A stretch of DNA of 63,972 bases, counting the filler, from Pseudogymnoascus verrucosus (lineage: Eukaryota), in assembly GCA_001662655.1 (NCBI GenBank). It is 5 parts of 5 records of this genome, joined end to end, with 100 filler letters (N's around TTAATTAATTAA, not from the genome) between each part and the next. Parts side by side here need not be neighbours in the genome. Positions count along the whole stretch, not along the records: positions 31,779 to 47,243 come from KV460302.1; 4 more parts are not named here. One strand, given 5' to 3'. How positions within the stretch are numbered: the stretch's first letter is position 1; each line of letters starts with the position of its first letter. A program made the translations under genes and the position numbers. The notes under the pieces were generated by a model. It was not told where the DNA came from and made no database searches. It saw only the letters and a program-made list of their open reading frames with translations. Below, piece by piece: positions 1 to 62,280 of the stretch.

Positions 1-21
1 CCCTAACCCTAACCCTAACCC
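1..21 (-). repeat. Telomeric repeat (CCCTAA)3.5 / (TTAGGG)n
   Basis: Window begins ccctaaccctaaccctaaccc, the canonical filamentous-ascomycete telomere unit in left-end orientation. Confidence 0.85.
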
Positions 22-15761: not shown

Positions 15762-16037
15762 CTCTGTGCTTCCTTCGCTATGCACTTTCCTCCAACGAAC
15801 ATTCAAAAGTACCACAGCAGCCTTAATAAGTATAGAAGTTCCCTGTTAATTTTCTACCCATCTAGTCTGGTCCTATATACATCTCTCCCTCCCTCCAACC
15901 CACCACCCTAAAACCCCCTCCCACTCCTCTTAACAACCGGCTTCCTCACCGCCCCCTCTGCGCAACCTTCTTCACTACCGCGCCCTCCGCCTTCACTCCC
16001 CCCCCCCCCCCCCCACCCTCCCCCCCCCCCCCCCCCT

Positions 16038-16069
<32 letters not shown>

Positions 16070-16081
16070 CCTCCACCCCCC

Positions 16082-16181
16082 NNNNNNNNNNNNNNNNNNN
16101 NNNNNNNNNNNNNNNNNNNNNNNNNTTAATTAATTAANNNNNNNNNNNNNNNNNNNNNNNNNNNNNNNNNNNNNNNNNNNN
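16082..16181. other. Artificial scaffold spacer N44-TTAATTAATTAA-N44
   Basis: Six-frame-stop linker at 16126-16137; an identical spacer occurs four times in the window. Confidence 0.95.
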
Positions 16182-31678: not shown

Positions 31679-31778
31679 NNNNNNNNNNNNNNNNNNNNNN
31701 NNNNNNNNNNNNNNNNNNNNNNTTAATTAATTAANNNNNNNNNNNNNNNNNNNNNNNNNNNNNNNNNNNNNNNNNNNN
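31679..31778. other. Artificial scaffold spacer
   Basis: TTAATTAATTAA at 31723-31734 within N runs. Confidence 0.95.
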
Positions 31779-31902
31779 CAGCCTCAAAGATTCGAATCAT
31801 GACTCGAATCAGATTCGAGTCATGATTCGGCGAATACCTCAAAAATATGAATGATTCGGCGGATCGCCGAATAGTATTCGGGGGGTGATTCGCCGCACAC
31901 TG
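31779..31902. mobile_element. Terminus of a hAT-like DNA transposon
   Basis: Ends ...GATTCGCCGCACACTG (reverse complement CAGTGTGCGGCGAATC) with dense GATTCG/CGAAT subterminal repeats; lies at a contig edge. Confidence 0.55.
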
Positions 31903-32282
31903 AACTAGATAGTATAGTAGTAGGCGCGTGTAGCTATCTCTATTTAAAGTATATGTACGCTATGTAGGTAGGGATATGTATAGTATAGAGTTCGTATATA
32001 GTAACGAGGCGTAGGTGTAATAGGATAGAGCTGCTATTAAATGGATGTTAATGGGCGCGACCGGATTATGCTACTATAACGCAGTAGTAGGTGCCGCTGA
32101 CGGGATGGTGCCGCCCTTCGGTAACTAGAATGGTGCCGCCTTGTCGATGCGGATGCCGCTGTTCGGATGCCGCCGCCGAATCCCATTTATGACCCGAGAT
32201 ATACATTTGAATTACAACACTACAGAACGGTTTTAGGATATTAGGAAGAGTGAAAAATAGAGTTTAAGTATACTGTAATCAA

Positions 32283-34830
32283 TTCCCGTAAACCGTATCA
32301 GTTCCTATAAAAGCGCCTTAGAATGGCAGGTGTCTATAAACTTCTCGCGGGTATAGTGTCACGTTAGTACTTATGTAGCAGCAAGTAAATCTTTCACCAC
32401 AACCGCTATAAATGCTCTATGATCCTTAAAATCAAGCAGGAGATAGAATGGGCATGTGCGCTTTATTCCCCGTGGTCGGTATCAGTTCTCGAGAACGGGT
32501 TTCAGTTCGGATCAGTTTGAAAGATACTAGATGTATATACAGTACATCCCCAAACCTACGCAGCAACAGCGCACTATGTTCCCACACCTACAACTCACCA
32601 CGTTATGCTCTAATACTCCTCATACTCAAATGGGAGATAATTCACATATATCTAATTCAAACCCCGCGGTCGGTATCAGTTGTAAACAAGTAGTATCAGT
32701 TCGCATCAGTTTTGAAAACCGGATGCCTCTGCGGTTCCGCTCATACTTTACCGGAACCCGGCTAGTTACTATATACAGCATCTTGTAGCAGCCACAGCAC
32801 GCCACGCTATAGTCGGATCTGTATAAAATTCAATCGTAGTATAATTCACATGTATCTAATTCAATTCCCGCGGTCGGTATCAGTTGTGAGCAAGTGGTAT
32901 CAGTTAGGATCAGTTTGGTAGACCGAGTGCGCGGGCTGCTTATAATCCCATTACGGAACCCGACCATTCACTATAGGTAGCATCTTGCAACGGCCACAAC
33001 TCGCCACCCCATAGTCACATCCTTCTTAAATCCAGTTATACAATAGTTCAGATGCATAGAATCCATTCCCCGCGGTCGGTATCAGTTGTGGGTAAGTGGT
33101 TTCAGTTCGGATCAGTTTGGTAGACGGGGTGCGCTAGCCTCTCATGATTACTACAGAATGCATCATCTTGCAGCGGCCACAACCCGTCATCCCGTAGTCG
33201 TATCGATCTAGAATTTAATTATACGATAGTTCACATGCATAGAATCCATTTCCCGCGGTCGGTATCAGTTGTACGCAAGTGGTTTCAGTTCGGATCAGTT
33301 TGGCGTAGTAGGTGCGCTGGCTGCTAATGAAAACTATTATATGATGCCAACCACTCAACACGCCACAGCCTGTAGCTCACTACGCCACGGCCTATAGCTC
33401 ACCACGCTGCTATCGGAGGGTTTTCAAATTCAGACATACGATACTATAGGCATTTACGTACAGTTTCCCGCGGTCGGTATCAGTTTCGAGTAAGTGGTTT
33501 CAGTTCGGATCAGTTTGGCGTAGTCGCGCCTCAGCAGGGCAATGTGAGAGCCGCGCGCCTTACCATGCTACAGCCTATAGCTCACCACGCTGCTATCAGC
33601 GGGTTCTAAAATTCACAGATACGATACTATAGGCATTTATGTACAGCTTCCCGCGGTCGGTATCAGTTTCGAGTAAGTGGTTTCAGTTCGGATCAGTTTG
33701 GCGCAGCGGGCTTCAACAGTAGTAATGCCATACGGGGACTGTACACAGAACACACCACCTTAGAGAAGGGACAGCACATAACACAAGAATCGTAACTGGT
33801 TGAGATTTAAATACAGGATACTATAGACCTATATATTCGTTTCCCCGTGGTCGGTATCAGTTGTAGAAAGGCGGTTTCAGTTTAGATCAGTTTGGCGCCG
33901 TAGACAATGTGAGAGTTGGGCGCTCGCAGCATATGCGCGCGTCATATACATAGAACGCATCGGCCTCTGGTAGATATAGCACACGACGTGATTATCATAG
34001 GCAATAGAGATTGAAATCTAGAGTAATATAGACCTATACAAGTTATTTCCCGTGGTCGGTATCAGTTCTAGGTAAGCCGTTTCAGTTTGGATCAGTTTTG
34101 AGATGCCTCCTCAGACCGGTAGGGCTTGTCACGTAGAACGCGCCATGTTACAACGCACGTAGCTCATCACGCTATAACTATAGATACCTCATTTTGAAAA
34201 CCTTGATTCTATAGACCTCTATACGCTATTCGCCGTGGTCGGTATCAGTTGTGAACAGTTTGTTTCAGTTTGGATCAGTTTTGAAATCCTGCGTAGATAG
34301 GCAAATCCAGACAGGCGAAGCCGGATAGGCGGGACATACCATCCTGTAATAACACACCATCTTACAACAGGCACAGCTCACCACATCAAGGTCGCAAATG
34401 CTTCATTTTTAAAATCTTAATTCTATAGACCTGTACACATTATTCTCCGTGGTCGGTATCAGTTGCGAACAGCTGGTTTCAGTTTGGATCAGTTTTAAAG
34501 TCCTGTGTAAACAGGCAAAGCGAAGCCGGACAGCCACCTTACAACTAGCACAGCTCACCACGCTACGGTCGCAAATGCTTCATTTTTGGACATGGAACTC
34601 TATATACATATACGTCTTGTTTACCGTAGTCGGTATAACTTTTGATCAATGGGTCAGGGACGCGATACGATTCCCAAGTGACTATTCCCGCAACGCATAC
34701 ATCTCGCCACACCACGGTCGCAAATGCCTGGTTTTTGGATATGGGTTTGTACCGGCATTTCAGTACCGATCCTTGTGGTTGGTATCAGTTGTGCGCAACG
34801 CGTTGGGAAGCATTTGGATCAGTTGCGCAC
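32283..34830. repeat. Array A: ~14 units of mostly 183-215 bp, each with a conserved ~55-bp core CCCGYGGTCGGTATCAGTT-N11-GT[TA]TCAGTT-N3-ATCAGTTT
   Basis: First core ATCAGTT (or its degenerate equivalent) at 32297(deg), 32481, 32675, 32879, 33081, 33264, 33479, 33662, 33856, 34061, 34244, 34458, 34635(deg), 34784(deg). Confidence 0.95.
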
Positions 34831-35011
34831 AACGCGTTGGGGAGCCCAACCTGTTTGGACAGGCGAAGCGCGTCGCAACTCCGCGATGGAAAAAGGCTAT
34901 AATACACGATTCAAACAGGCAAGCATTTACAAACCCATCCCGATGCAAACGGAAAGTCGTTTCATTTCTAACTCTACTCTAGCGACAACGCGAAGCAAAT
35001 GGAGCCACAGT

Positions 35012-38000
35012 CTACCCGATCACGATAGGTTCCAGTAAAAAGAATCCAGCCGTAGCTGGTAAAGCATTGACGGAGCGGAGACGCGGGGCTAGTGGGAGGA
35101 TGGTAGGGATCCCGTCAGCGCCGTACATGATGCACGGCGTTCCTTCCTCTATGCAGCCACCACAGCACCAATTTCCTGCTTCGTGGGCATTATCCGGCCT
35201 ATTCCGCCGTCTGTTCACACGGTGGAAAACGCATCGCACGGCTAGAGGATTTGGGCGCCACCACTTCTTTCTGTCTCTTAGCGGGATGATGGCAGCCGTG
35301 ATGGTGCCGAGAGTCTCCTCATGAACATGGGACGTGAACACGCCATTTCCCAAAGTGCTAGAGACCAAGAACCGAAAATCGAGGCTCCCGACGGCAACAC
35401 CAGGCGGGGCCTCGATGCGCGAAGGCACGGGCACAGCAGAGGGACCTGCAGAGGTTGCGACAGGGACGGGCCCAGCCGGGGTCGCAGAAGTTGACGCGAT
35501 AGGACCAACCGGGTTTGCAGGGGGCATAACAGGGCTATGTCCGGACACGTTGGTTGCGATATACAGAGGGGAGTTTCCGGACACGGATGGGACCACAGGA
35601 GAAGTTTCGGTCGCAGAAGCCTCGGTCGCGTTTGGTTCAATCACAGAAGTATGCACGGGGGTAGGCAATCTGGCTTTGGTCATGGGAATATCAGCATCCA
35701 ACTCACGATGCTTACTACCGGCGGCATGACGGCTATTGATAGGCCCGCCTGTCCCGGTGGTATCAGAAATCTCGGCGCTGCTCGTGGCCATGGGCGTATC
35801 ACCACTGGCGGCATGTCGACCATTGATTGGCCCGCCTGTCCCAGCAGTTCCAACAAACTCATTGCGGGTATCACGAAGCTCACCGCCGGCGGCATATCGA
35901 CCACTGATCGGTTGCGCTCCGTGATGGAGACTCGTCGGTGCGCTGCGAGGGGGAGCTCGCAGTCGGCGAGAAGGGAGATGGCCCATCGCGCGGCGGACTC
36001 GTCGTCATAGATGATCCCGGGCGCGGAGGAGGGCTCATGCTCGTGAATGACGACGATGAAATGGACGAGGAACGAGAAAATGGCCTGCTCGGCTCGCAAC
36101 CCACAGACGCGATCGATGGCCTGTCCAACCCACAGCCCACAGACACGCGCGCCTTTCGGCGTCTCTCTGCCTCCTCCTCTTCCTCCTGCTGCGCTTTCCG
36201 GACGCGCTCTCTCTCGTCTGCAGCAGCGCGCTTGAATTCGTTGGCGACTGCTTTGGTCACCTCCCCCTTCGTCGCGGAATCCCCAATCACAGTCAGGATC
36301 GTTTCCATCCTGCTGTCCTCTGACCCATCGACCGATTTCTGCAGGCGCTGGACCTTCTCGTCCATTTGGGCCAGACAATCGGATATCCTCTTGATCGACA
36401 TCTCGAAGATAGAAGACATGACACTGTCTCGTCGCAGGTCCCAGAGAAGTTCCCGGATGCCGTTCCGCGAGTTGGTCACCGTGTCATCGACCTTAGACTG
36501 AACGGCCCGCATTGATGAGTCGATTTCGCTGATAATCCTCGCCCGGTTAGAGTGTGCCTCTAGCCGTGCTGTACTGGCCTCCTCGATGATTGCACGTTGA
36601 GCTTTCTCGATGGTTGTCTCAAGCATATCCTTTGTGAGGTCTACTCGATCACCAAATGCGCTTAGGATGGCGGAGAATCCGTCCGATTTCATCGCCACTC
36701 CCGCCATCTCGGCAACAGACTTGCTGAGCAGGTCGAGCTCGAAGACGGTATCTCCGATTCTGTTGCCGTTGAGATCTGCAGCGATGCCGATCTTGCTGAG
36801 CCGCCGTTGGGTATCTGCCATGCCCCTCTTGATCTGCTCGGACTGCATCGTTACGGCGTTCTCAATCGTCGACAACCTCGACGTGCTCGTGTTTGCTATC
36901 GAGTTAAGCTTCCCAAGCGACTCGGCGATAGCGTGGGACTTCTCGAGAGAGGCAATCTTTACGGAATGCTCGTTCTTCTGCGCGTCGTATAGCGCTTCTG
37001 CTTTCTCTGCACGAACGGTCATCTGCGTGATCTGGCCCCGAAGGGATTGGTTTGCCTCCTCTACCTTTCCTGCGACAACGGAATTCTGGCGGAGGGCGGT
37101 ATTCTCGTGCTCAAGCCGTACAATATACCCCGAATTAGCCGCCTCGATAGCAGTCGTTATCTTGGCAAGTACGTCCTGCGTCTTCGCCGCATTCGAGACA
37201 TCTGCCTCAAGCTTTGCGATGGCTAGAGTCTTCTCCTTAATGGCATTATAGCCTGATAGGATGTCACCCTGGAGGTGCTCAACTAACGCGCCCTTCCGGG
37301 TGTTGTCGCGAACGAGGTTCTCTTGCGCGGCCATTATGACAACCTTCTCCTGGTTGAGGGTAGCAACCTGGTCCGCAAGATCGGTGACGCGCAGCCCCGA
37401 TGCCGTCTTCTCTTGCATAAAGCGGCCAACCTGAAGAAGCAGCCTTCGGTTTTCCCCTACCAAACCGGCGTTGGCAGTGCGCAGTCCGTCTACTGCCGTT
37501 TTAGCCTCTGCCTCAACCACTGCGATCCTTGTCGCCGAGTCTTGCGCTGACGTATGCGCCTGGAGGCGCTCCGTCGCCATCCTTAGCCCGTCCTCCGCTA
37601 TCTTTTTCCGGAGAGTGCTGATGGTCGCAGCATCTCGAGATGTAGCATCTCGTGCGGCATTGAGGGCAGCGGCATCCGACTGCTTCAATGCATCCAGGTC
37701 CACAGTATATTTATTTTTCTCGTCCTGAAACTCCTTCCTCATCGCATCGAGATCGGCTTCAAGCCTCTCCTTCTCCTTCCTCATCGCATTAAGACTCTCC
37801 CTCTCATCCCGTAGCGCATCCATCTCAGCCTTCTCCTTGTCCCTCTCCTTCCTCATTGCATCAAGATCCGCCTCCCCCTTCTCCCTCTCTTTCCTCATCG
37901 CATCCAGCTCAATTTGAAGCCTTTCCTTCTCCTTCCTCGTCGCATCCATCTCCGCCTTCTCTTTCCCCCTCTCATCCCGCAACTGCTTTATCACCCCCTC

Positions 38001-38474
38001 AGCCGCATCAAGCTTCGCCTTTGCCCACTCTGAATCCGATTTGGCCACTCGTGAATCGACTCGCGCCTCGAGAAGTTCCCGATTCGTTTTCTGCTGCGCC
38101 TCCTTTAGGATCTCGACAGAGACCCCGAGTCGCTTCGCATTTGCGCTGTTCTAAAAGGTGCTCGTAGCACTAAACTTCTCTTTGAGATTCTCGACCTCGT
38201 TGGCGGCGTCATCCGCCTCATGTTCCAAGGCGAATGCTTCGGTCGTAAGCCGGCTCATCTCATCCCAGACTGCTGTACAATCCGCTTTTGCCTCCTCATC
38301 CCCATACTCCCCATCGATTTCCTGAAGTTCGCGAAGTCGGTCCACCTGATCGATAATATGCCTTTTCCTCTCCCGCTTCACTAATGCCATTTCAATTCCG
38401 CGGCCAAACCCGTCCTGGTTACCAGGATATGTGACACGGGTAACGCGCTCGAGGTGAACCCTAAACGGCTCCAT
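35012..38474 (-). pseudogene. Large intronless coiled-coil protein gene (~1150 codons) with C-terminal Cys cluster, broken by one TAG and one frameshift
   Basis: ORF 38474-38151 is in frame with 38048-35880 across a single TAG (38153-38151). The reading frame then shifts near 35990-35900 into ORF 35986-35012, ending RCVFH...WCCGGCIEEGTPC...LPL. Confidence 0.65.
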
Positions 38475-38818
38475 GATTAGTTATTATGTATCGTAGGAAG
38501 GGCACAATCCGGTTAAGTAAGTCAGGCACAGTCTGGTCACAGAGAGATGAAGGTATGCGGAAACTGGGTTGGTCACTGCACATTCACCAGTCCCGATTAG
38601 GATACTGCCTCCAAAACCCGCAAACTCTCCATAGTGTGCTATGCTATCGAATACTTGATGATTTACATGTCCTGAACCCGTCTTGTCATCCTGCTGCCAT
38701 CTTGTCATCCTAATGCCGCCCTGAACCGTCTTGTCATGCCGCTGTCATCCCCAAGATCAACCCCACCACCCCGCTACACGCCAACCCGCCAACCCCGCCA
38801 TCCCCGCAACCGATCGCG

Positions 38819-40180
38819 ATGCCATCCATACGAGAATCTGAAGGAGATCGCTACTCGGCCCCGAGATGTCGGGCGGATCTGGTAGAGGCCTTGGTGATAA
38901 CCCCTGGACCATTCGACGATACCCGAATCGATGATGAAATGTTCGACACGCGTCAGGCCAACGACGCCACAACGCGCACCTTCAAATCAACGATCCTCAG
39001 GGTTCTTATGCAGGTCAATTTTCTCGTGATCAGAGGACTCGCCCTCGGAAATCTACCCGAAGAGGCTCGCACCACGCTCGATACCTTCTTTACCAACGAC
39101 TACATCAACCTTGGTGACAACGTCCCGGGTGTGTACGTCAATTACATCGTTGACGAGAACGGGATCGCGCCTACGAAAGCCGATATCATCGAAATACTCG
39201 CCGTAATGAGAGAATACCTTGGGAACGACTCTGAAGTCCTCGCAGAACAGGTAGATGCGCAGTTTGGCGGGAGCCGGAAGGAATGGAGGTATGCGCATAA
39301 GCCAGAAACAAAGCGGGTTCAAGCTGCATTCATTAAAGGGATGGAGAAGAGGCTCGGGATACCTAAAGGCGCCGATGCCCAAGACTCAGCTGGATCCGAA
39401 GCCGACATTAAGGTCGAAGCTGAACCTGCTGGATCCGAAGTCGACGTCAAAGTCGAAGCCCATTCTGATGCTGACGCTGACGCTGACGCCCCATCTCGAG
39501 TCCCCGCTACCGCATACGCCCAATCCGACGATGACATGGACACCCCAATCCCATGCGGGATATCCGAAGTCGGTTTCAGCATCACCCCCCTCAAGCGCAT
39601 CCAGGACCACCAAAAGCACACCAACAGCAACTCGATCATGAACCTCTTCGAGGCAGCCGCACGCTACCTGTTTGGCAACAGATATGCCATTCAGGGATAT
39701 GTCGTTGCGCGGGTCGTAGACCCAACTCTCGCCGGCCTTTCCGAGGCAGTCATATCACGACTGGCCTGCTCGTACACCGACTGGGGAGGCGGATTTAACG
39801 GGAAGCTGGCTGGGCTTAGCGTACACGGGTTGAACAACATGCCTACGGTCCTTGCAGATACTAAGCTCACAAGAGAGGCATGGATAACGCACGAGGCCAA
39901 CGAAGACATGGCAAACGTAGAGGATGAGAGGGTGCGGGTGCAGGAGAGGATTGCTTTTCTTGAGCAACGGATTGCTTCACGACATGATCGCCATAACTAT
40001 GCCACAGAGAGGTGCATCGATGCCGCCGAGGCATACTTACTCCAGTCCGGTCGTCGCGCAGATGCCTACGAAAAGATTAAGGAGGAGAAGGAGAAGTGGG
40101 AGGAGTTCAAACGAAAAGCGGAAGAAGAGAAGGATCCCGACTGGCTCAAGAAGGTCAGGGATGTATGTGGCGCAACGTGA
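38819..40180 (+). CDS. Divergent GIY-YIG-superfamily nuclease-like protein, 453 aa, intronless
   Basis: PGVYVNYI ... EVGFSITPLKRIQDH ... LSEAVISRL ... GGGFN, which follows the order and spacing of GIY, YVG-x6-KR-x3-H, E and GYN in I-TevI. The ORF is solid; the family call is by eye. Confidence 0.65.
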   Translation: MPSIRESEGDRYSAPRCRADLVEALVITPGPFDDTRIDDEMFDTRQANDATTRTFKSTILRVLMQVNFLVIRGLALGNLPEEARTTLDTFFTNDYINLGDNVPGVYVNYIVDENGIAPTKADIIEILAVMREYLGNDSEVLAEQVDAQFGGSRKEWRYAHKPETKRVQAAFIKGMEKRLGIPKGADAQDSAGSEADIKVEAEPAGSEVDVKVEAHSDADADADAPSRVPATAYAQSDDDMDTPIPCGISEVGFSITPLKRIQDHQKHTNSNSIMNLFEAAARYLFGNRYAIQGYVVARVVDPTLAGLSEAVISRLACSYTDWGGGFNGKLAGLSVHGLNNMPTVLADTKLTREAWITHEANEDMANVEDERVRVQERIAFLEQRIASRHDRHNYATERCIDAAEAYLLQSGRRADAYEKIKEEKEKWEEFKRKAEEEKDPDWLKKVRDVCGAT

Positions 40181-40402
40181 TGTGGCGTAAACTCAAAGTA
40201 TGTATTGCTCCCCTTGCTCCCTTAATTCTTGTCCCTCCCGTTACATCAAACACGGTATGTATTGCTACTGCTTGTCATCGCGTTAGAACCCGTAAATTGT
40301 AGTTTTCAATTTGATTATCTGCTTGCAGCCGCTAGCCATGTCGTCCTATGTTGATCTGCCGCCGAGCCGCATCCGTAATGCCAAGCAGGGTCTATCCCGG
40401 CG

Positions 40403-40987
40403 TTACTCAAACGCATCCCGGAGAAGCACGAACGCCTCATCAAACGCGCGCTCAAGCTGCATGACAATCACCCGGCATTCCACATCTTCAACCTGCCTGC
40501 CCGCAGCCTCCATCGCCATCCCAATCCGCCATGCTGCCGCCATTAAGTGACGGATTAGGTCGCCACCACCGACCTCGCGCTCCCACACCTCGTTGTCCCC
40601 TACTGGTCTCACCAGCCCGCCCCTGATATATCCGCGTAGTGCCCTGGTAGATGTAATGACTCTGTCCCCGACGGCGTGTCTCTCGGTGTCATCCAGTTCC
40701 CCCCCAGCCATGCCGATACACCGAATTATACCCTGGAGCGATATGATAGATCGGTAAATAAACATTATCACGAAGGTGCCGCAGATCTGATCATCGGTTT
40801 CTCTCTGGCGCGCCACCTTCTCCTGTTGACTGTGCGTGAGGTAACCGTCCCCGCTTCCACCTTCCCCATTCCGAGTTGGTCGATCTTGGCTGTTGTGGCT
40901 GCCTATGAACGCGTTGTCATCTGCCCCGTCTTCGCTGTTTGGGACTTCATCTCGAGCAGTGCTTGCATCTTGGCTGTTGATATCCAT
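40403..40987 (-). CDS. Hypothetical protein, 194 aa
   Basis: ATG-initiated ORF convergent with the nuclease-like gene; helical-looking C-terminal half; no recognisable family. Confidence 0.45.
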   Translation of the reverse strand: MDINSQDASTARDEVPNSEDGADDNAFIGSHNSQDRPTRNGEGGSGDGYLTHSQQEKVARQRETDDQICGTFVIMFIYRSIISLQGIIRCIGMAGGELDDTERHAVGDRVITSTRALRGYIRGGLVRPVGDNEVWEREVGGGDLIRHLMAAAWRIGMAMEAAGRQVEDVECRVIVMQLERAFDEAFVLLRDAFE

Positions 40988-41319
40988 CTTCAGAGGTTGA
41001 CGTGTTCGAGTAATGGGGCTGAGACAAGATCGGATTTTAGATTTGTGCTGAAACGTTGGATTTTTTTGTCTGAAGACCTCACGAGTGCGGAATCTGTGCC
41101 TTGGCGGATAGTTGGGAAGCAGGTGCGGATTCTGTGCTTTGATATGTAGTCAGAACGCGTTTAGCAAGATAACACCCTCAAGGTCTTATCGCGTATTCAC
41201 TTCATCGCGTTATATTGAAATTACAGATTATACTTGGAGGAATAGCTTTCATTAGAGTTATATATGCTTTTTGCTACCCATCTTCATAAACGAGTGACTA
41301 TAGGCCTCTTCTCCCCTCC

Positions 41320-41500
41320 CATCCGGTTCCGTACTTCGCCTTTGAAAAATGATTATCTCCCCATCCATAACACGCCTTTGAAAAATGATTGTCCCCATCC
41401 GGTTCCGCGCGCCTTTGAAATGATTGTCCCCGCGTAGTTCTGCTCGCCTTTGAAAATGATTGTTCCCCATCCGGTTCCGCGCGCTATTGAAATGATTGTC
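41320..41500. repeat. Array B: ~36-bp repeat x5 (CGCCTTTGAAA(AA)TGATT.TCCCCATCCGGTTCCG)
   Basis: Units begin at about 41337, 41373, 41410, 41445 and 41482. Confidence 0.9.
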
Positions 41501-41614
41501 GCTCTCCTATAAGATATATTCGAATGCCGTCCCACTTAGTTCTGCCTCTGCGAATTTGGTAAAAATGCGATGGGTTTGATACGTCTGCCGCTCGACTTGA
41601 TTTCACCTTCGAGC

Positions 41615-43756
41615 TCATGCCTGCCGTTTGGCAGCAGGCTGATCATCACCCTGTTCCTCTCCCCTCTTCCTCTTAAGTTCCTCGAACCTCAAATCTATTC
41701 CTGCGAATGTAGCGCGAACTTGCTGCTGAACCTCCTTAATGTCGCTTAGCTTTAATTGTTCTGAGGCGTTAACAATCTTGCCAAGTTGATCGTGAGCGGA
41801 TAGAATGCCTCCCATTACGAACATTTTGGGTAACTCGACGTCTTGATGCCGAGGCAGAAACTCCCTGCTCCATGGGTTTGGTGTTCCGACGGGTACTGCT
41901 TGGTAGCCTAGAAGTGTACAGAGGTCACTGTAACAATCACGCTCTGATAGAACACCCGGTTGGGGTGTAGAGGGGTTTCCATTCTGGTCGAGAGAGCGCG
42001 GAGCGATTTGGAGCTTGATAGCCTGCTGGCGGTTTCGTGCCTCTTCATGTTGGGTGAACCGGGAGACCTCTTCGTATTGGTTGGGCTTGAATAGCTGGGG
42101 GAAGGTCAAATCATCCTCGTCTTCATCTTCAAAACCTTGATGCTTGTAGTTACCGTCATGAGGTTTAAGACTCTCATTACGGTATAAGAACTGTACGTCT
42201 GGCTCTGCCTCAGCGTCCTGCGTATCACCAGAAGTGCGGTTGTCTCGCTGCTGTTCGCTCTCTTTTTTAAAAATGTATCCTTCCCGAAGGAGCTGTTGGC
42301 GATGGGCATGGTCGAGCTGCTCTTGCTCATAGCGCTCCTTGTCCTGATCGGCAAGCTCCTGTTGGACGCGTTCAGCTGCAACCTGGCGTTTCTCCATCTC
42401 AATGCGTTGATTCGCCTCTGCTTCTAGGCGTTGCTTCTTAATGCGCTCTGCCTCCAGGCGCTTAGCTTCTGCAGCCCGTTGAGTCTCCTCTTCCCATAGT
42501 CGACGTCTCTCTGCAACCTGGATCTGCTTCTGCTTTAACTCCTTCTCCCTTTGAGCAAAGGCATTCTTTTGCTCGTTAATTTCTTTTGCTTCAGCTGAAA
42601 GGCGACGTTCCTCATCCGAGTCGAAACCTGTGTTCTCTTTGTTGGTAGGAGCGTTGGATTGGGAGGCGAGAACCGATTCGGACCGTGCTATAACCTGGTC
42701 TGGATTTTCTTTGCGATCTGACTCTTCTGAATCGAACGGGTCTAGTAATTTCCGCTTCTTCTTCTCTCCGTCCTTTGTTCCGGCTGACTGGGATGGCTGG
42801 TTCCGCCATAAATTCACCGACCTCGACTTGGGAATTATAGCCTCCTCCCCATCATCGTCATCATCATCCTCCTCGTCAGAATCAACCGGTTTATCAACCA
42901 CGTTAGGAATCCGTTTCGCCTTTGGCTTCTCTGATGCCCTTTTCGGTTTGCGCGCCACCTTGGCCTTCTTCTGCTTCTTTGTAATAAGTCCATCTTGGTC
43001 CTCTGAGTCGCTCGTAGAGTTGTATCCCCCACGACTATAGACTGGTGTCGGGTTCTCGATTGGGGAATCGGTCATCTTTGAGGCGTCTTTGTTGAATCTC
43101 TTCTCACAAGACAACCGGCGGTATCTCAGACCCATGGAGTCATACATCTTCCTCGGAGCATAGCGTTTGAGCCAAGCATCTGCATATGCTTTGGCTTGAA
43201 CCGAATCGGCGATCCTCACCCCGTGGACAATGCCATGCCACCACTCGGCATAGTTTGGTTGCGCCTGGAAGTTCTTTTCGGTCACCGAACCAGGCTTCCT
43301 ATTCTGATCAGGCCCAAGACACCCACGCAGCGTCATGCCGTCGATCGTCATCAGGTCACCGCTGCTGTCATATAGGGTCGTTCCATTTTTATTCAGACTG
43401 TTTCGAAGCGGTTTGGATTTAATGCCCTGTCCAGGACTTGCCTTTTTTTGGATACTACCAGACCGAACAAAACCCTTGTAATCCCACAGCGATCTCGGGG
43501 GGAAGTATAGCTCATCGTCTGGCGGCAGGAGGCTCCAGTATCGCATTACGATCATCACGCCATGAGATAACGGCTGATCCTTGGGGATCATCGCCATCCT
43601 TAGCGGACCCGATCCGATGGTCGGGTTCCAGACATTCCCACCATTTGGATCCAGTACGCACCCAGCCGGAGTGTTCTTGTAATATCCTATTTTGGCCGGG
43701 ACAAGTTCAGGGAACTCGGTAAGCAAACCAGCTTTTGCCTTAGCAGCCATTTTCAA
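41615..43756 (-). CDS. Orphan ~710-aa protein: globular N-terminus, basic/acidic linker, coiled coil, terminal basic NLS-like motif
   Basis: Uninterrupted 713-codon ORF. A splice acceptor (GCTGAC..CACAG, ~43866) lies just upstream, so the true start may be in an upstream exon or at ATG 43750. Confidence 0.75.
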   Translation of the reverse strand: MKMAAKAKAGLLTEFPELVPAKIGYYKNTPAGCVLDPNGGNVWNPTIGSGPLRMAMIPKDQPLSHGVMIVMRYWSLLPPDDELYFPPRSLWDYKGFVRSGSIQKKASPGQGIKSKPLRNSLNKNGTTLYDSSGDLMTIDGMTLRGCLGPDQNRKPGSVTEKNFQAQPNYAEWWHGIVHGVRIADSVQAKAYADAWLKRYAPRKMYDSMGLRYRRLSCEKRFNKDASKMTDSPIENPTPVYSRGGYNSTSDSEDQDGLITKKQKKAKVARKPKRASEKPKAKRIPNVVDKPVDSDEEDDDDDDGEEAIIPKSRSVNLWRNQPSQSAGTKDGEKKKRKLLDPFDSEESDRKENPDQVIARSESVLASQSNAPTNKENTGFDSDEERRLSAEAKEINEQKNAFAQREKELKQKQIQVAERRRLWEEETQRAAEAKRLEAERIKKQRLEAEANQRIEMEKRQVAAERVQQELADQDKERYEQEQLDHAHRQQLLREGYIFKKESEQQRDNRTSGDTQDAEAEPDVQFLYRNESLKPHDGNYKHQGFEDEDEDDLTFPQLFKPNQYEEVSRFTQHEEARNRQQAIKLQIAPRSLDQNGNPSTPQPGVLSERDCYSDLCTLLGYQAVPVGTPNPWSREFLPRHQDVELPKMFVMGGILSAHDQLGKIVNASEQLKLSDIKEVQQQVRATFAGIDLRFEELKRKRGEEQGDDQPAAKRQA

Positions 43757-44473
43757 CCGGGTCGGTGTAGTCGGCGAGCTTGCCCAAGCGGGTCTGATCC
43801 GGTCGGACGAGAAGGGTTCAGTTGACCAGGTCGATATGTGTGTCGGATGGGTGTATGTAGTGAAGCTGTGAAACCAAAGTCAGCTAACTTCAAATTCATC
43901 AAATTGCATTATGCGCAAAGAAAACTTTGTAAGAAAACGTCGCAAGATCGAGGGCTATGGATATGATTTCACTTCACGTATACATAGTAGGGCATTTGAA
44001 CTCACCTCTGCTCATAATCTGCACCTTTTTTTGCAGTGTTTACTGCAAAAAAGAGGCAATCTGCTCCTTAAAGTGATGTTAGAGTATGTTTGATAGGGTT
44101 AAAGGAAGCAATAGCGCAGCATACCTTCGTATCTTGGGTTGACAGTGTAAAAGAGAGCTTTTAGTGAGGTTAGAGTAAGTTTAATGGGGTCAAGAGAAGC
44201 AATGGCGCAGCATACCTCAGTATCTTGTTTCGGTGACGACAGAGAGAGACGATGAGGTCGGGTGCAGTGCAGCAAGATGAAGCTGAGGTGTGACGGCGAG
44301 AGAGGGAAGAGCAAACTGAGGCAACGAGAGTTTTGGCAGCGAGAGAGAGACAAGATGAAGGTGAACGGGAACAGTGAACGAAATAATGCGTATATCACTC
44401 CTAGCAAGAATATTCACTCCTGGTATTTGCCGCTGCGCCCTATATCAGCCCAAATGCCTTTACAAACTTACAG

Positions 44474-45095
44474 AACACGCCGACCGGTTGGGATATCCCC
44501 GTAGCTCCTCTACCCCGATTAGATTGAGAAACATAACATGCAAACCGGTTGGGTTATCACTACGCCGACCGGTTGGGATCCCCGTATCTCGTTTGCCCTA
44601 ACTGCTTCAGATTGAGAAACATAACATGCAAACCGGTTGGGTTATCACTACGCCGACCGGTTGGGATCCCCGTATCTCGTTTGCCCTAACTGCTTCAGAT
44701 TGAGAAACATAACATGCAAACCGGTTGGGTTATCACTACGCCGACCGGTTAGGATCCCTGTACCTCGTCTGCCCCGACTGCTTTAGATAACATAACATGC
44801 AAACCGGTTGGGCTATCACTACGCCAAGCGGTTGGGATATCCTCATGGCTCCTCAGTCGCCCTCGACCGCTTCGGATTAAGAAACGTAACACGCCAACCG
44901 GTTGGGATCCCCGTACCTACTGCCCCGACCGCTTTAGATTAAGAAACATAACAACGCAAACTGGTTGGGCTGTTACTACGCTAACCGGTTAGGATATCCT
45001 CATGGGTCCTCAGCCGCCCTCGACTGCTACGGATTAGAAAGTAGAACACGCCGACTGGTTGGGCTATCACTACGCCGACTGGTTGGGATATCCTC
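44474..45095. repeat. Array C: ~83-94-bp units x ~7, most with two ACCGGTTGGG motifs 24 bp apart
   Basis: CCGGTT (or variant) at 44484, 44545/44569, 44633/44657, 44721/44745, 44804/44828, 44898, 44961/44985, 45055/45079. Confidence 0.93.
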
Positions 45096-45390
45096 GTAAC
45101 TCCTCGACTGTCCCAAACTGCAACGGAGTGAGAGGCAGGCCTTCCACACCGCAACTGATCGCCACCTCAAAACTACAAAACACGCCAACTGATCAGGTTA
45201 TCCCCGTAGAAACTCTACGGCATGCGATATACGTTCTCTCACGCGACCACCTCAGACGTTAGAGGTATGCGCTAAAACCAGAGACACGGCGCATGCAAGC
45301 CACGTTTATCGATGGAATAGAATAGCCAACGGCTGATGCCTAAGAATCAGCTGGATCTGAAGCCGACATCAAGGTCGAAGCTGAACCGGC

Positions 45391-45578
45391 AGGGAAGAAC
45401 GATAGAGATGGGCATGGTAGGGAAGAACGATAGAGACTAGCATAGTAGGGAAGAACGATAGAGACAGACATGGTAGGGAAGAACGATAGAGATGGGCATA
45501 GTAGGGAAGAACGACAGAGACTAGTATAGTAGGGAATAGCAACAGAGATGGGCACAGTAGGGGAAGAACGACAGAGAC
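45391..45578. repeat. Array D: 28-bp minisatellite (AGGGAAGAACGATAGAGA.....AT.GT) x ~7
   Basis: Direct tandem copies visible in sequence. Confidence 0.9.
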
Positions 45579-45940
45579 GGACTCGTAGCACTAAACTTCT
45601 CCTTAGTAGTAATGACGAAAGTAGTTTAGAGTTGCTAACAAACCTTAGCGCGACATATAATTTATAAGCTTAAAGTCGCCATTTAATATGAGAAAATGAA
45701 TAGTAATCAACGGGTAGGCACTACTTCATTTCTACACAGAAGTCGTCTCGAGTGACAAATGGAGAGATTAGTGAACAACAGCAAGTCCGTGATTATAGAG
45801 CAGAATAGGCGTCGACGGTATGACGTGCGGGATGGCTGCAAACAAACTATATAATACACGCCTTCGTCGTTATAATCATCTCATTACCATCGTCTTGTTC
45901 ATTCAATAATATCAATTAATACAACCAACCAATCGCCGAA

Positions 45941-46997
45941 ATGTCTCTTAATTCTGTTCTTTTGACCGGTGGCACAGGCAGCCTCGGCGCAAGCATCCTC
46001 TCGCAGCTGCTCTCGAAGGGCCACAGCGTGACTGCGGTCGTGCGATCCCTCAAGAAGTCCGCGCCTTTCCTCACCCGACAGTATGCCTCTCAAGTCGATT
46101 CCGGGAAGCTCAAGCTTGTCGAGGTTCCTGACATGACGGTCCCACACGCATTTGACGAGCTTGTAAAGACCGTCGATGCCATAATCCATGTGGCTACCCC
46201 TCTGTCAGACAGCGACTTTCAGAGGACACTTATTGATGCGACCTTAGCCATCAACGAGAATATATTCGCAGCATCTCTGAAAGCTCCCTCTGTCAAGCGC
46301 ATTGTCATCACTGGCAGCATTGTGTCTACGATGGCCCTTCCTGATGTTCTGTTCCGACCCATCACTGTGAGCGCGGACGACTATTCCACTATTACTAACG
46401 AGCAGGGCCTATCAAGTCTCCCAGCCGCATATCAATACGCCAAAACTTCATCCGAGAAGAAGGCCTGGGAGTTCATGAAGACGGCAAAGCCATCCTTTGA
46501 TCTTGTCGTCCTGCTAGCCCCTGCTATTACTGGAAAATGCATCCAGGAAGGATTCGTGCCATCCAAAACGGCCCTCGGAGGCATGGCCGAAATCTACCAG
46601 AATGTCTTTGACGTCGAGACTCCGGGACTTGTCTTCCCTTTCGTTATGTAAGTTTATGTTTTCGGCGTTAGTTGGTACGCATACTAATTCAATTAGGGAT
46701 GTCGAGGATGTTGCTTCTATCCATGTTAAGAGTCTGGACTTGAAAGTCGCAGGGAATGAGAGATACCTCTTCCATTCCGGTCATCCTCAGAACTCGTCAG
46801 AAATCGCGAAAAAGATTCGCGAGGAGTATCCCCAGTTAAGAAACCGTGTCCCCGAAGTCCTCGACGAAAGTGCGGAGTCTCCTGTCAAGGTGAAGGTAGA
46901 CACTTCCAAGTCCGACAAGGTGTTTGGCGGGCCGTGGAAGGATTGGTGGGAGTCTGCAAAGGACACAGTTGACGACATTATCAAGTTTGAGAAATAG
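45941..46997 (+). CDS. NAD(P)-dependent epimerase/dehydratase family reductase (GRE2/aldehyde reductase II-like extended SDR), 2 exons
   Basis: VLLTGGTGSLG, IIHVATP, VKRIVITGS, YQYAK (YxxxK), DVEDVA. Intron 46648-46696. Confidence 0.93.
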
Positions 46998-47093
46998 ACT
47001 GTCAGCTTGTAATTTACCAAACTAAAGATATTAAACAAATGTGTTGCTGTCACCTCGAGTGTTGTATAAACAGGCGGCTTCGGGAACGAGCAC

Positions 47094-47243
47094 CAGTGTT
47101 GCCCGAGTACTACTCGTTGCGAGTACTACTCGAGTAATTACTCGAGTAGTACTCGACTCGAAGAAATCTGAACTACTCGAGTACTACTCGAGTAGTACTC
47201 GAGTAGTACTCGAGTAGTTGCCAAGATAGCCAAGAAGCGGGGT
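47094..47243. mobile_element. Terminus of a second hAT-like DNA transposon
   Basis: Begins CAGTGTTGCCCGAGTACT, followed by many CTCGAGTA/TACTCGAG subterminal repeats; runs into the contig edge. Confidence 0.55.
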
Positions 47244-47343
47244 NNNNNNNNNNNNNNNNNNNNNNNNNNNNNNNNNNNNNNNNNNNNTTAATTAATTAAN
47301 NNNNNNNNNNNNNNNNNNNNNNNNNNNNNNNNNNNNNNNNNNN
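47244..47343. other. Artificial scaffold spacer
   Basis: TTAATTAATTAA at 47288-47299 within N runs. Confidence 0.95.
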
Positions 47344-62180: not shown

Positions 62181-62280
62181 NNNNNNNNNNNNNNNNNNNN
62201 NNNNNNNNNNNNNNNNNNNNNNNNTTAATTAATTAANNNNNNNNNNNNNNNNNNNNNNNNNNNNNNNNNNNNNNNNNNNN
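62181..62280. other. Artificial scaffold spacer
   Basis: TTAATTAATTAA at 62225-62236 within N runs. Confidence 0.95.

Follow-up and report, generated by a model that had tools for sequence, protein, structure and literature searches.

Alpha-satellite DNA is built of head-to-tail monomers of roughly nucleosome scale that have diverged by tens of percent, with a short CENP-B box conserved. Repeats that serve partition or maintenance of episomes include the yeast 2-micron STB, EBV FR and the KSHV terminal repeats, the last with three adjacent LANA sites. Myb-type terminator and fork-barrier arrays are represented by the Sal boxes of mouse rDNA (TTF-I) and by the RTS1 and Reb1 Ter sites of S. pombe, and CACTA/Tpn1-like transposons carry subterminal repeats in tandem near the element end, with a short protein-binding motif in every repeat of about 100-200 bp.

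We analysed an array of head-to-tail units, 11 of them intact and 3 decayed, in the soil fungus Pseudogymnoascus verrucosus (positions 32283-34850 of the window, the whole stretch of 63,972 bases under study). The intact units measure ~190 bases each and the array ~2.5 kb in all. We read it, with a rough probability of 0.45, as a cis-acting array of eleven 57-bp composite sites that are predicted to bind one or more sequence-specific proteins and are probably kept by purifying selection. Like alpha-satellite monomers, its units run head-to-tail and each carries a box whose conservation clearly exceeds that of its surroundings, but there are only 11 units (2.5 kb), they have no sequence relation, and the box is a 57-bp tripartite composite whose binding is predicted here. 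With STB, EBV FR and the KSHV repeats the array has in common direct repeats with clustered, helically phased sites that one dedicated protein may bind, and a possible cognate gene adjoining; it differs in its longer units, its linkers of free sequence, the putative status of the cognate protein and the lack of any sign of episomal DNA. The Sal box, RTS1 and Reb1 Ter arrays likewise have same-orientation sites, a GGTCG...CAGT-like or AAC-core string and a location downstream of a transcription unit, and because all copies point one way the polarity of the present array is built in. Spacing is much larger here, however, Rfam detected no rDNA in the window, and the motif likeness was judged by eye only. 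Tandem repeats that each hold a short motif near an end also recall CACTA/Tpn1-like subterminal repeats, whereas no inverted terminal repeats, no transposase and no sign of high copy number were found here.

Each 57-bp core contains a CCG-N4-CGG element (CCGYGGTCGG) and, after it, TCAGTT hexamers in three direct copies (AACTGA when the opposite strand is read). A sequence-only reading of this DNA had reported these hexamers at offsets 0, +20 and +30 and core-to-core distances of 184, 194, 204, 202, 183, 215, 183, 194, 205, 183 and 214. Our regular-expression scan reproduced the distances, as well as the offsets in 11/11 intact cores, and a repeat search agreed (11 copies with spacings 194 through 214, the 184 being contributed by the decayed left unit). 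Such offsets place the hexamers roughly on one helix face. The array holds 36 of the 45 plus-strand copies of TCAGTT in the window, and the whole minus strand of the window has 9. All units have identical orientation (Table 1), and each combines a block of ~150 bp in ungapped register with a linker of 33-65 bp at chance-level identity. Length variation resides entirely in the linker, which falls into classes of 33, 44, 52-55 and 64-65 bp. The block spans about -100 to +50 around the core, and the 11 units are mostly in ungapped register; in the MAFFT alignment two units are shifted by 2 bases near -80 and the first has a gap of 9 bases. Upstream of every core, at a distance of 10-55 bp, is a conserved AT-rich segment of 49 bp that contains TATA-like strings (mean GC 0.30 vs 0.50-0.55 elsewhere).

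Table 1. Coordinates of the array, its units and nearby features (window positions)
Feature	Position	Strand	Basis or remark
Artificial joint of assembly pieces (44 N, TTAATTAATTAA, 44 N)	31679..31778	.	Array's real contig starts at 31779
GATTCG/CGAATC palindromic short-repeat cluster, very start of the array's contig	31789..31892	.	
Whole tandem array (u0 decayed, u1-u11 intact, u12 and u13 decayed)	32283..34850	+	Regular-expression and repeat scans
Decayed left unit u0, keeps first TCAGTT only (32298)	32280..32463	+	Regular-expression scan
u1 core (CCG-N4-CGG, then TCAGTT at 0/+20/+30)	32468..32524	+	Regular-expression scan, identity profile
u2 core	32662..32718	+	Regular-expression scan, identity profile
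u3 core	32866..32922	+	Regular-expression scan, identity profile
u4 core	33068..33124	+	Regular-expression scan, identity profile
u5 core	33251..33307	+	Regular-expression scan, identity profile
22-bp internal tandem duplication in u5, 2.5 copies	33354..33407	+	Explains part of u5 extra length
u6 core; 47-base core proper same as that of u7	33466..33522	+	Regular-expression scan, identity profile
u7 core	33649..33705	+	Regular-expression scan, identity profile
u8 core	33843..33899	+	Regular-expression scan, identity profile
u9 core	34048..34104	+	Regular-expression scan, identity profile
u10 core	34231..34287	+	Regular-expression scan, identity profile
u11 core	34445..34501	+	Regular-expression scan, identity profile
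Decayed u12, every hexamer gone	34618..34766	+	Repeat search
Decayed u13, two TCAGTT 34 bp apart within a 34-bp internal duplication	34767..34850	+	Regular-expression scan, repeat search
Hypothetical protein, ~1100 aa, sole established neighbouring gene	35015..38150	-	Homologue, domain and structure searches

Mean pairwise identity along the core is 1.00 in GGTCGGTATCAGTT, 0.55 in the next 12 bases, 0.96 in the second hexamer block, 0.67 in the next 3 bases and 0.92 in the third block, and directly after the core it is 0.30 (chance, 0.25). The upstream block gives 0.44-0.65 per 10-base bin, again against 0.25 by chance, and ~50% overall. By region, the core motifs stand at 0.92-1.00, the upstream block at 0.47-0.50 and the linker at 0.24-0.32, and the claim that conservation is far higher in the core than elsewhere in the unit held in the unit alignment (0.92-1.00 vs 0.24-0.50). 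Near-invariance, which had been ascribed to whole cores, applies to the motif blocks but not to the bases between them, and the strong divergence reported between cores is true of the linkers, whereas the ~150 bp block, wider than the core, can still be aligned. At least 33 core positions are fixed in 11/11 units, while the spacers have diverged to chance level. Invariant motifs interleaved at fine scale with variable bases are a pattern that fits direct sequence recognition of the core by a protein. Conversion tracts cannot even out the hexamers and yet leave the 12 and 3 diverged bases between them; the interleaving, taken from paralogous units, points to purifying selection on the cores more than to gene conversion.

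Between particular units, core identity reaches 100% (u6/u7), 91% (u10/u11) and 91-94% (u3-u5), and the variable core positions show the same neighbour structure as the spacers, so the cores evolve with their units. The blocks of u6 and u7 are 91% identical across 148 nt, which implies recent duplication or conversion. Neighbouring linkers have heads and tails common by descent, and only their middles are unalignable. Linkers of equal length are unrelated in sequence (ungapped identity 0.15-0.30), among them three unrelated linkers that all measure exactly 33 nt. In a check for RIP, transitions and transversions stood at 953:1071 over all pairs and at 12:5, 28:7, 19:15 and 18:9 in four close pairs; an A followed 17/34 C/T sites, a T preceded 4/26 G/A sites, and RIP indices of the array were similar to the window average.

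The window consists of several assembly pieces spliced by N-TTAATTAATTAA-N linkers, so Het-C, which lies to the left on another piece, is no real neighbour of the array. The true contig of the array covers 31779-47243, and the array starts ~500 bp from one end of it. Both contig ends are palindromic short repeats, where the assembly broke, and they have no terminal inverted repeat in common (the contig is truncated, and an end could be missing). The array is collinear in three other isolates, whose contigs repeat the unit orders u0-u3, u1-u4 and u7-u13 at 1-2% divergence. This repetition speaks against mis-assembly, which the sequence-only reading had named as a concern, for those stretches but not for the joints of u5-u7, which are unbridged. 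The contigs of other isolates break at cores, and some core-bearing ones sit in different sequence contexts. A further sequencing run (X11, small share) yielded four low-depth contigs, one of which reaches the first unit (32419-32585), the rest lying outside the array. Contig depth in the array and in the neighbouring gene was 27.4 vs 19.2 in one isolate and 14.3-14.6 vs 15.8 in another.

Variants between isolates were counted among those listed (40 of 65). Within the intact array, 6 of the 37 listed fall in cores; when a probably paralogous cluster is left out the figure is 6/20, with cores making up 29% of bases. Among the variants listed, the cores taken together show no depletion of differences between isolates. 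Five of the 6 core variants occur where the units themselves differ from one another, and only the one at 34086 hits an invariant hexamer base.

Ten of the eleven unit lengths lie within 0.7 bp of a lattice of 183.5+10.4k, with 202 off by 2.3, and the decayed end units (177 and 149) miss it by 3.9 and 3.3. The fit has R=0.90 at the best period of 10.4 bp. For the claim that lengths changed by whole helical turns, the outcome depends on how the lengths are counted: only 2/3000 nulls reach this R if they are independent, but collapsed to five classes, 789/3000 reach the fit in a full period scan and 80/3000 in the 10-11 bp band, so the lattice loses its significance where units of equal length inherited that length from a common ancestor. 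One shift of length class is partly a single 22-bp duplication. We regard the 10.4-bp lattice as suggestive.

Non-core DNA lacks 10-bp WW dinucleotide periodicity (z -1.0 at 10.0 bp and -0.6 at 10.5 bp), and the maximum of the scan (z 2.48 at 8.6 bp) is under the null 95th percentile of 3.33. One nucleosome plus one bound core per unit, as had been proposed, finds no support in this lack of a 10-bp WW signal, nor in four units where the gap between cores is only 126 bp, short of the 147 bp that a nucleosome takes up. Fungal nucleosome repeat lengths are ~155-170 bp, and the array units, at 183-215 bp, are longer. In the portion of Wang et al. 2008 (PMC2522279) consulted, yeast nucleosome linkers are quantised at 10n+5 bp as a genome-wide statistical preference. 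Array lengths also differ by multiples of ~10 bp (best period 10.4), but relative to what that portion describes they come from one repeat family and have no 10-bp dinucleotide signal. Their phase cannot be fixed, as it is set entirely by the helical repeat that one assumes: between units the fractional turn is 0.99 at 10.2, 0.44 at 10.5 and 0.27 at 10.6 bp/turn.

The neighbouring gene has its stop codon ~160 bp from the right end of the array and encodes a protein specific to this fungal lineage, in which a long coiled coil is combined with a basic four-cysteine domain at the C-terminus. A Zn2Cys6 binuclear cluster has six cysteines (CX2CX6C...CX2CX6C) and a matching fold; this domain has four conserved cysteines only (C82, C105, C108 and C115), equal to one CX2CX6C half. 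Pfam gave no match to the domain and did not assign DUF3716, and Foldseek returned nothing at E<=0.001, with a Leu3 DNA-binding domain at E 4.8. Using a wide structure search, we obtained Z>=2 for 2 of 48,161 chains, PPR1 (Z 2.3, rmsd 3.8, 49 aligned) and GAL4 (Z 2.0, rmsd 2.5, 39 aligned). By language-model features only (score 0.90), the domain groups with clusters partly labelled DUF8257 or DUF3716. Cluster names of its relatives are all 'hypothetical', apart from one automatic 'chromosome segregation ATPase' on a longer member. The genes of the contig are orphans without Pfam domains, and no transposase or integrase domain was detected among its ORFs. The 754-aa ORF at 41618-43879 has no homologue at E<=0.001, and its N-terminal part brought up nothing usable in an Atlas search.

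The array had been called non-coding, and each of the six frames of the -100..+50 block indeed contains stops in at least 10/11 units, which rules out a protein-coding repeat or exon array; the 60-nt core alone has one frame open in 10/11 units, with splice sites inconsistent by eye. A processed repeat-spacer RNA had been offered as an alternative to a binding array, and its structured versions are disfavoured, leaving an unstructured processed RNA as a candidate. Clustered genes for small structured RNAs (snoRNA-, tRNA- or SINE-like), in which the core would serve as conserved scaffold or internal promoter, would draw on the three CTGA per core on the minus strand, on GTGATGA in u9 where the others have GTGGTGA, and on a loose likeness of the core to degenerate A- and B-box strings, all seen by eye against consensus sequences. 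We consider this reading most improbable: Rfam gave 0 matches at the gathering score over the whole window and, at 32000-35200, best E-values of 1.2 and 6.4 for two unrelated families, at chance level. ARAGORN detected 0 tRNA genes in the window and no cloverleaf for a tRNA gene or tRNA-derived SINE array. Units show no excess folding stability (MFE z -1.19 to +1.63 in 22 folds), and RNAalifold on the 11 blocks gave -2.08 kcal/mol (plus) and -2.82 (minus) with 3 invariant pairs and 0 covarying. The minus-strand snoRNA boxes were also discarded by eye, as the C-box-like string is not kept between units. An RNA without stable structure, either an lncRNA with eleven protein-binding modules or a promoter-plus-start module in each unit, is in our view rather unlikely. 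The common orientation, the AT-rich segment just upstream of each core (30% GC, with TATAG/TATATA runs), T5 runs ahead of the AT-rich part in u10-u12 and the adjoining 3' end of a minus-strand gene are all compatible with it, but most units lack T-runs, the Rfam and folding results and, on either strand, the consensus structure give it nothing, and length classes of helical turns make no obvious sense for RNA. A Pol III unit (TATA plus T-run) is rejected as a general feature, since T-runs occur in the last few units only, and a scan for bacterial-type promoters and terminators, of little relevance to a fungus, was not above shuffles. A CRISPR-like repeat-spacer array does not fit, because the ends of neighbouring linkers are common by descent and hence not independently acquired spacers, and the search for linker targets by BLAST came back empty for the rest of the window.

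Among DNA-level readings, a neutral or selfish minisatellite or satellite would have arisen by tandem duplication and unequal crossing-over, its core kept by promoting or surviving recombination or by chance of age and its lattice a product of inherited classes and 10-22 bp slippage. The window contains at least 12 tandem arrays, including two more on the array's own contig, so minisatellite formation is common there. Decay at the two edges is what unequal exchange predicts, and the five-class result (full scan), the 22-bp duplication behind part of one class shift, the close u6/u7 blocks and the undepleted cores (among variants listed) agree with such an origin. Exchange or conversion cannot, however, yield the nucleotide-scale alternation within the core, and the fixed core positions beside spacers at chance level, a ~150 bp block largely free of indels despite ~50% identity and the three unrelated 33-nt linkers also weigh against it; we judge this origin unlikely, if deserving of serious consideration. 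The array could instead form the subterminal repeats of a DNA transposon or mobile island that has escaped recognition, with the hexamers as sites for a transposase or accessory protein. The nearby contig end, the palindromic repeats at both contig ends, the orphan genes and the core-bearing contigs in other contexts in other isolates would suit this, as would the grouping of the neighbour's C-terminal domain, because DUF3716 genes occur inside a class II transposon of Zymoseptoria in the part of PMC8232023 consulted. It is nevertheless improbable given ORFs without transposase or integrase domains, contig ends without a common terminal inverted repeat, an array depth like that of the neighbouring gene, the absence of any other core copy in the 64-kb window and DUF3716 not being assigned by Pfam itself.

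The binding-site array is preferred on account of the interleaved core conservation, the block register, the failure of the coding and structured-RNA readings and the collinearity in three isolates. The fit of lengths to the 10.4-bp lattice, with both core-decayed units off it, speaks for it, and the change at the invariant hexamer base 34086 in other isolates speaks against it. Of the selected protein-binding array as first proposed, the non-coding character and the core conservation hold, the lattice is not significant if lengths are inherited, and a centromere, partition, origin or pairing locus would be a candidate role. Each core would be occupied by a multimeric or cooperative reader. 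The ~100 bp upstream, constrained in spacing, would belong either to the footprint of that reader or to a positioned nucleosome. Linkers of 33-65 bp would be free in sequence and tolerated mainly in whole-turn length classes, which could hold successive complexes in a fixed rotational relation. From this may result a nucleoprotein or chromatin array in phase, which would function as a boundary, silencer, enhancer or barrier. By resemblance, candidate readers would be Myb-like for AACNG and of zinc-cluster type for CGG.

A bolder version, which we hold to be a long shot, would join array and adjacent gene in one lineage-restricted module: a coiled-coil dimer would read the CCG-N4-CGG and hexamer core via its zinc-cluster-like C-terminal domain, and eleven such complexes, their rotational register kept by selection on whole-turn linkers, would make up a chromosomal, chromatin-scale system of binding sites and cognate binder in a fungus, with the function of a heritable chromatin boundary or of a locus for partition, pairing or a centromere-like role. 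If the binding-site reading is right, the locus would be a natural eukaryotic case of selection on rotational spacing between large protein-DNA complexes, beyond the sites themselves. It would also provide a 2.5-kb test bed for mutual phasing of bound factors and nucleosomes and for function kept in tandem repeats despite spacer turnover, and a lead to what the orphan coiled-coil proteins of Leotiomycete fungi, with their small cysteine domain, do. If that reading is wrong, the array is a minisatellite of some age whose core has lasted unusually well, and a warning on helical numerology from eleven non-independent lengths.

Outside the array, no further core copies were identified in the 64-kb window, and BLAST of the array against the remaining window gave four chance-level matches only (13-22 nt). 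The array gave no BLAST alignment with the second array at 44477-45110; by eye, CCGACCG and AACYG strings are common to that array and the core. Literature searches for tandem repeats of Pseudogymnoascus returned nothing on this array among the matches listed, and those for TCAGTT as a binding motif and for CACTA subterminal repeats found none. Scans with the full core pattern gave 0 matches in prokaryote genomes and 0 in viral contigs. The five metagenome loci that matched the core pattern are simple 10-bp microsatellites of GGTATCAGTT type, unrelated to the array.

The array runs head to tail through eleven intact units (u1 to u11) and decayed ones (u0, u12 and u13), and its features are collected in the table. 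The core spacings reported in the sequence-only reading (184, 194, 204, 202, 183, 215, 183, 194, 205, 183 and 214 bp, then 177 and 149 bp) were reproduced exactly, and TCAGTT is present at offsets 0, +20 and +30 in 11 of 11 intact cores. On the plus strand, 36 of the 45 TCAGTT in the window fall inside the array, and the entire minus strand has 9; no core-like sequence was found elsewhere within the window. The window consists of separate assembly pieces with artificial joints (44 N, TTAATTAATTAA and 44 N), and because one of these joints intervenes, the Het-C gene to the left is not a neighbour of the array. The true contig is 15,465 bp long and the array starts ~500 bp from its end. The sole established neighbour gene has its stop codon ~160 bp away from the array's decayed right edge; elsewhere the contig carries an epimerase-family gene, two further tandem arrays and orphan ORFs that lack Pfam domains. 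Database proteins 92-100% identical to the encoded ones bear names that place the organism in Pseudogymnoascus (Leotiomycetes).

Features of the array, its contig and the other assembly pieces
Feature	Position	Strand	Details
Telomere-type repeat	1-18		CCCTAA/TTAGGG, 3 units, start of first piece
Mostly-C run	15998-16081		84 bases, end of first piece
Artificial joints	16082-16181; 31679-31778; 47244-47343; 62181-62280		
Array's contig	31779-47243		
Left-end repeats	31789-31892		short palindromic tandem repeats, GATTCG/CGAATC
Tandem array	32283-34850		head-to-tail
GGTCGGTATCAGTT starts	32474; 32668; 32872; 33074; 33257; 33472; 33655; 33849; 34054; 34237; 34451		pattern scan
Decayed cores	~32290; ~34628; ~34777		
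Loose ends or joints in other isolates	32523; 33894; 34045; 34419-34499		reference-identical core, flanks absent from reference array
Neighbour gene	38150-35015	minus	hypothetical protein, ~1100 aa
Its C-terminal domain	35015-35476	minus	last 154 aa; C82, C105, C108, C115 of those residues
Long ORF	38714-40177	plus	
Long ORF	40406-41149	minus	
Minisatellite	41373-41500		35-bp period, 3.6 copies
Long ORF	41618-43879	minus	
Second tandem array	44477-45110		periods 88 and 157 bp
Minisatellite	45391-45580		28-bp period, 6.8 copies
Right-end repeats	47095-47219		short palindromic tandem repeats, TACTCGAGTA-type
Retrotransposon polyprotein fragment	50874-51284	minus	RT-associated RNase H domain

Aligned ungapped and anchored on the core (position 0, first G of GGTCGG), the 11 units share an alignable block of ~150 bp, from about -100 to +50. 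In 10-base bins, identity averaged over pairs of units is 0.44-0.65 upstream of the core and 0.65-1.00 inside it, and falls sharply to 0.23-0.32 on either side of the block (chance 0.25). The block is almost free of indels: in the MAFFT alignment two units are shifted by 2 bases near -80, and the first unit, which has the decayed u0 as its upstream partner, shows a 9-base gap. All length variation resides in the linkers between blocks (44, 54, 52, 33, 65, 33, 44, 55, 33 and 64 bp). Linkers of equal length are unrelated (ungapped identity 0.15-0.30), and those of adjacent units share heads and tails, as expected from simple tandem duplication. Each core is preceded by a 49-bp stretch of 30% GC with TATA-like strings, the remainder of the unit having 50-55% GC.

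The cores, described earlier as nearly invariant, are far better conserved than their flanks, but within them conserved and variable bases alternate every few bases: GGTCGGTATCAGTT (identity 1.00), the next 12 bases (0.55), TTTCAGTT (0.96), the next 3 bases (0.67) and ATCAGTTTKG (0.92). Core-to-core identity is 100% for u6/u7, 91% for u10/u11 and 91-94% for u3-u5, and the variable core positions relate neighbouring units to one another just as the spacers do. This motif anatomy is far beyond chance, and the observation is confirmed in a sharper form than the original one.

In three other isolates (runs X2, X3 and X4) the array is covered by contigs that diverge from it by 1-2%. These contigs show an identical order of units across 32000-33087, 32489-33304 and 33674/33708-35300; they end at cores and none spans the u5-u7 joints. 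None of the indels listed for the multi-unit contigs lies within intact units, those listed being in decayed units (34650, 34798) and just past the array (34881-34886). Judged from 40 of the 65 between-isolate variants, at least 37 variants lie inside the intact array, 17-18 of them clustered in one spacer (33526-33633), a cluster that probably comes from a paralogous unit. Outside it, 6 of the 20 variants listed fall in cores, which hold 29% of the bases, and thus the cores as a whole are not depleted of variants. Five of the six core variants listed are at positions that also vary between units, and one (34086) changes an invariant hexamer base. Some contigs join a core identical to a reference core to flanks absent from the reference array, one of them being a contig of 1769 bases of which just 81 match the reference; these suggest that other isolates have either additional kinds of unit or another locus.

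Conversion tracts cannot give the core pattern, because invariant hexamers alternate with varying bases and the variable positions track spacer kinship. The pattern looks like the outcome of purifying selection acting through direct readout of the bases, and on this ground the core may be read as a composite docking site, in which a CCG-N4-CGG element precedes three direct AACTGA/TCAGTT sites that would lie roughly on one helix face. The array would then present eleven docking sites under a mutual-spacing constraint. Of the available interpretations, a selected protein-binding array is the best, with a probability of about 0.45; binding, the identity of the reader and the role of the array are what we infer from the DNA. 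The hexamer resembles Myb-type AACNG recognition, the CCG-N4-CGG element zinc-cluster CGG half-sites, and the array Sal-box or Reb1-type terminator arrays, likenesses that we take as leads only.

Protein-coding potential was rejected, as every frame of the 150-bp block is stopped in at least 10 of the 11 units, in agreement with the non-coding array proposed at the outset. The processed repeat-spacer RNA raised then as an alternative fares unevenly. Its structured form is disfavoured, with no Rfam match at gathering score (a permissive scan gave only two chance-level rows), no tRNA, no excess of folding energy in the units (z-scores -1.19 to +1.63, both strands), and RNAalifold energies of -2 to -3 kcal/mol for the 11 blocks, where covarying pairs are lacking on both strands; an unstructured transcript from the array is compatible with these results. 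A CRISPR-like array was rejected since adjacent linkers are related by descent. As to RIP, transitions dominate only in the closest unit pairs and the CpA bias is on one strand only.

The statistical support for length changes of mostly whole helical turns, as in the sequence-only reading, depends on whether equal lengths arose independently. A periodogram of the 11 lengths has its maximum at 10.4 bp (resultant R=0.90). When lengths were drawn independently and uniformly over 183-215 (periods 4-25 bp scanned, 3000 trials), this value was reached in 2/3000 trials in the full scan and 0/3000 in the 10-11 bp band. However, the lengths are paralogous and non-independent, and when equal lengths are taken as identical by descent and collapsed to five classes, the observed fit is reached in 789/3000 and 80/3000 trials, respectively. 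A real constraint is favoured by three unrelated 33-nt linkers of exactly equal length and by the two units with decayed cores, which miss the lattice by 3.9 and 3.3 bp, but a single 22-bp tandem duplication accounts for part of the extra length of u5. Quantisation is therefore suggestive, not established.

The 10n+5 comparison rests on a rule for yeast nucleosome linkers, which PMC2522279 confirms. For the array this phase cannot be fixed, because the fractional turn between units is 0.99 if the helical repeat is taken as 10.2 bp and 0.27 if it is taken as 10.6 bp. The non-core DNA of the array lacks a 10-bp periodicity of WW dinucleotides. One nucleosome between bound cores, as first pictured, is possible, though a strained reading in the case of the four 183-184 bp units, which have only 126 bp between cores; alternatively, the nearly indel-free ~150-bp block itself may be a nucleosome-sized footprint.

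The neighbouring protein has a long coiled coil and a basic C-terminal domain with four conserved cysteines. This domain recurs C-terminally in 14 database representatives of very different lengths; it ends fungal proteins that are 64-1247 aa long, and several of these contain long coiled coils. It was assigned no Pfam family. Foldseek with a domain model built on the alignment of these sequences (mean pLDDT 80.5, pTM 0.72) gave no match at E<=0.001, the only thematically relevant row being the Leu3 DNA-binding domain (E 4.8). Exhaustive structural alignment against 48,161 chains gave only two at Z>=2, both Zn2Cys6 DNA-binding domains: PPR1 (Z 2.3, rmsd 3.8, 49 aligned) and GAL4 (Z 2.0, rmsd 2.5, 39 aligned), scores far too low to claim this fold for the modelled domain. 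Language-model features place the domain near clusters partly carrying DUF8257 or DUF3716, and PMC8232023 reports DUF3716 genes inside a class II transposon of Zymoseptoria. These resemblances and the transposon report lead to two readings, that the protein is the cognate binder beside its array or that the region is a mobile island, both speculative, with adjacency as their support.

This region is unusually rich in tandem arrays. The units of the second array carry the near-palindromic ACCGGTTGGG twice, and at its right edge are two GATCAGTTG strings in the orientation opposite to the main-array hexamers. BLAST gave no alignment between this array and the main core, with only short strings in common by eye (CCGACCG, AACYG). 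The three long ORFs encode charged, partly coiled-coil proteins without a Pfam family, and the 754-aa one had no homologue at E<=0.001. The palindromic repeats at the contig ends are probably the cause of the assembly breaks there, and neither end is an inverted copy of the other. The retrotransposon fragment is on another assembly piece than the array. The first piece, which has no relation to the contig of the array, probably represents the end of a chromosome because of the telomere-type repeat at its start.
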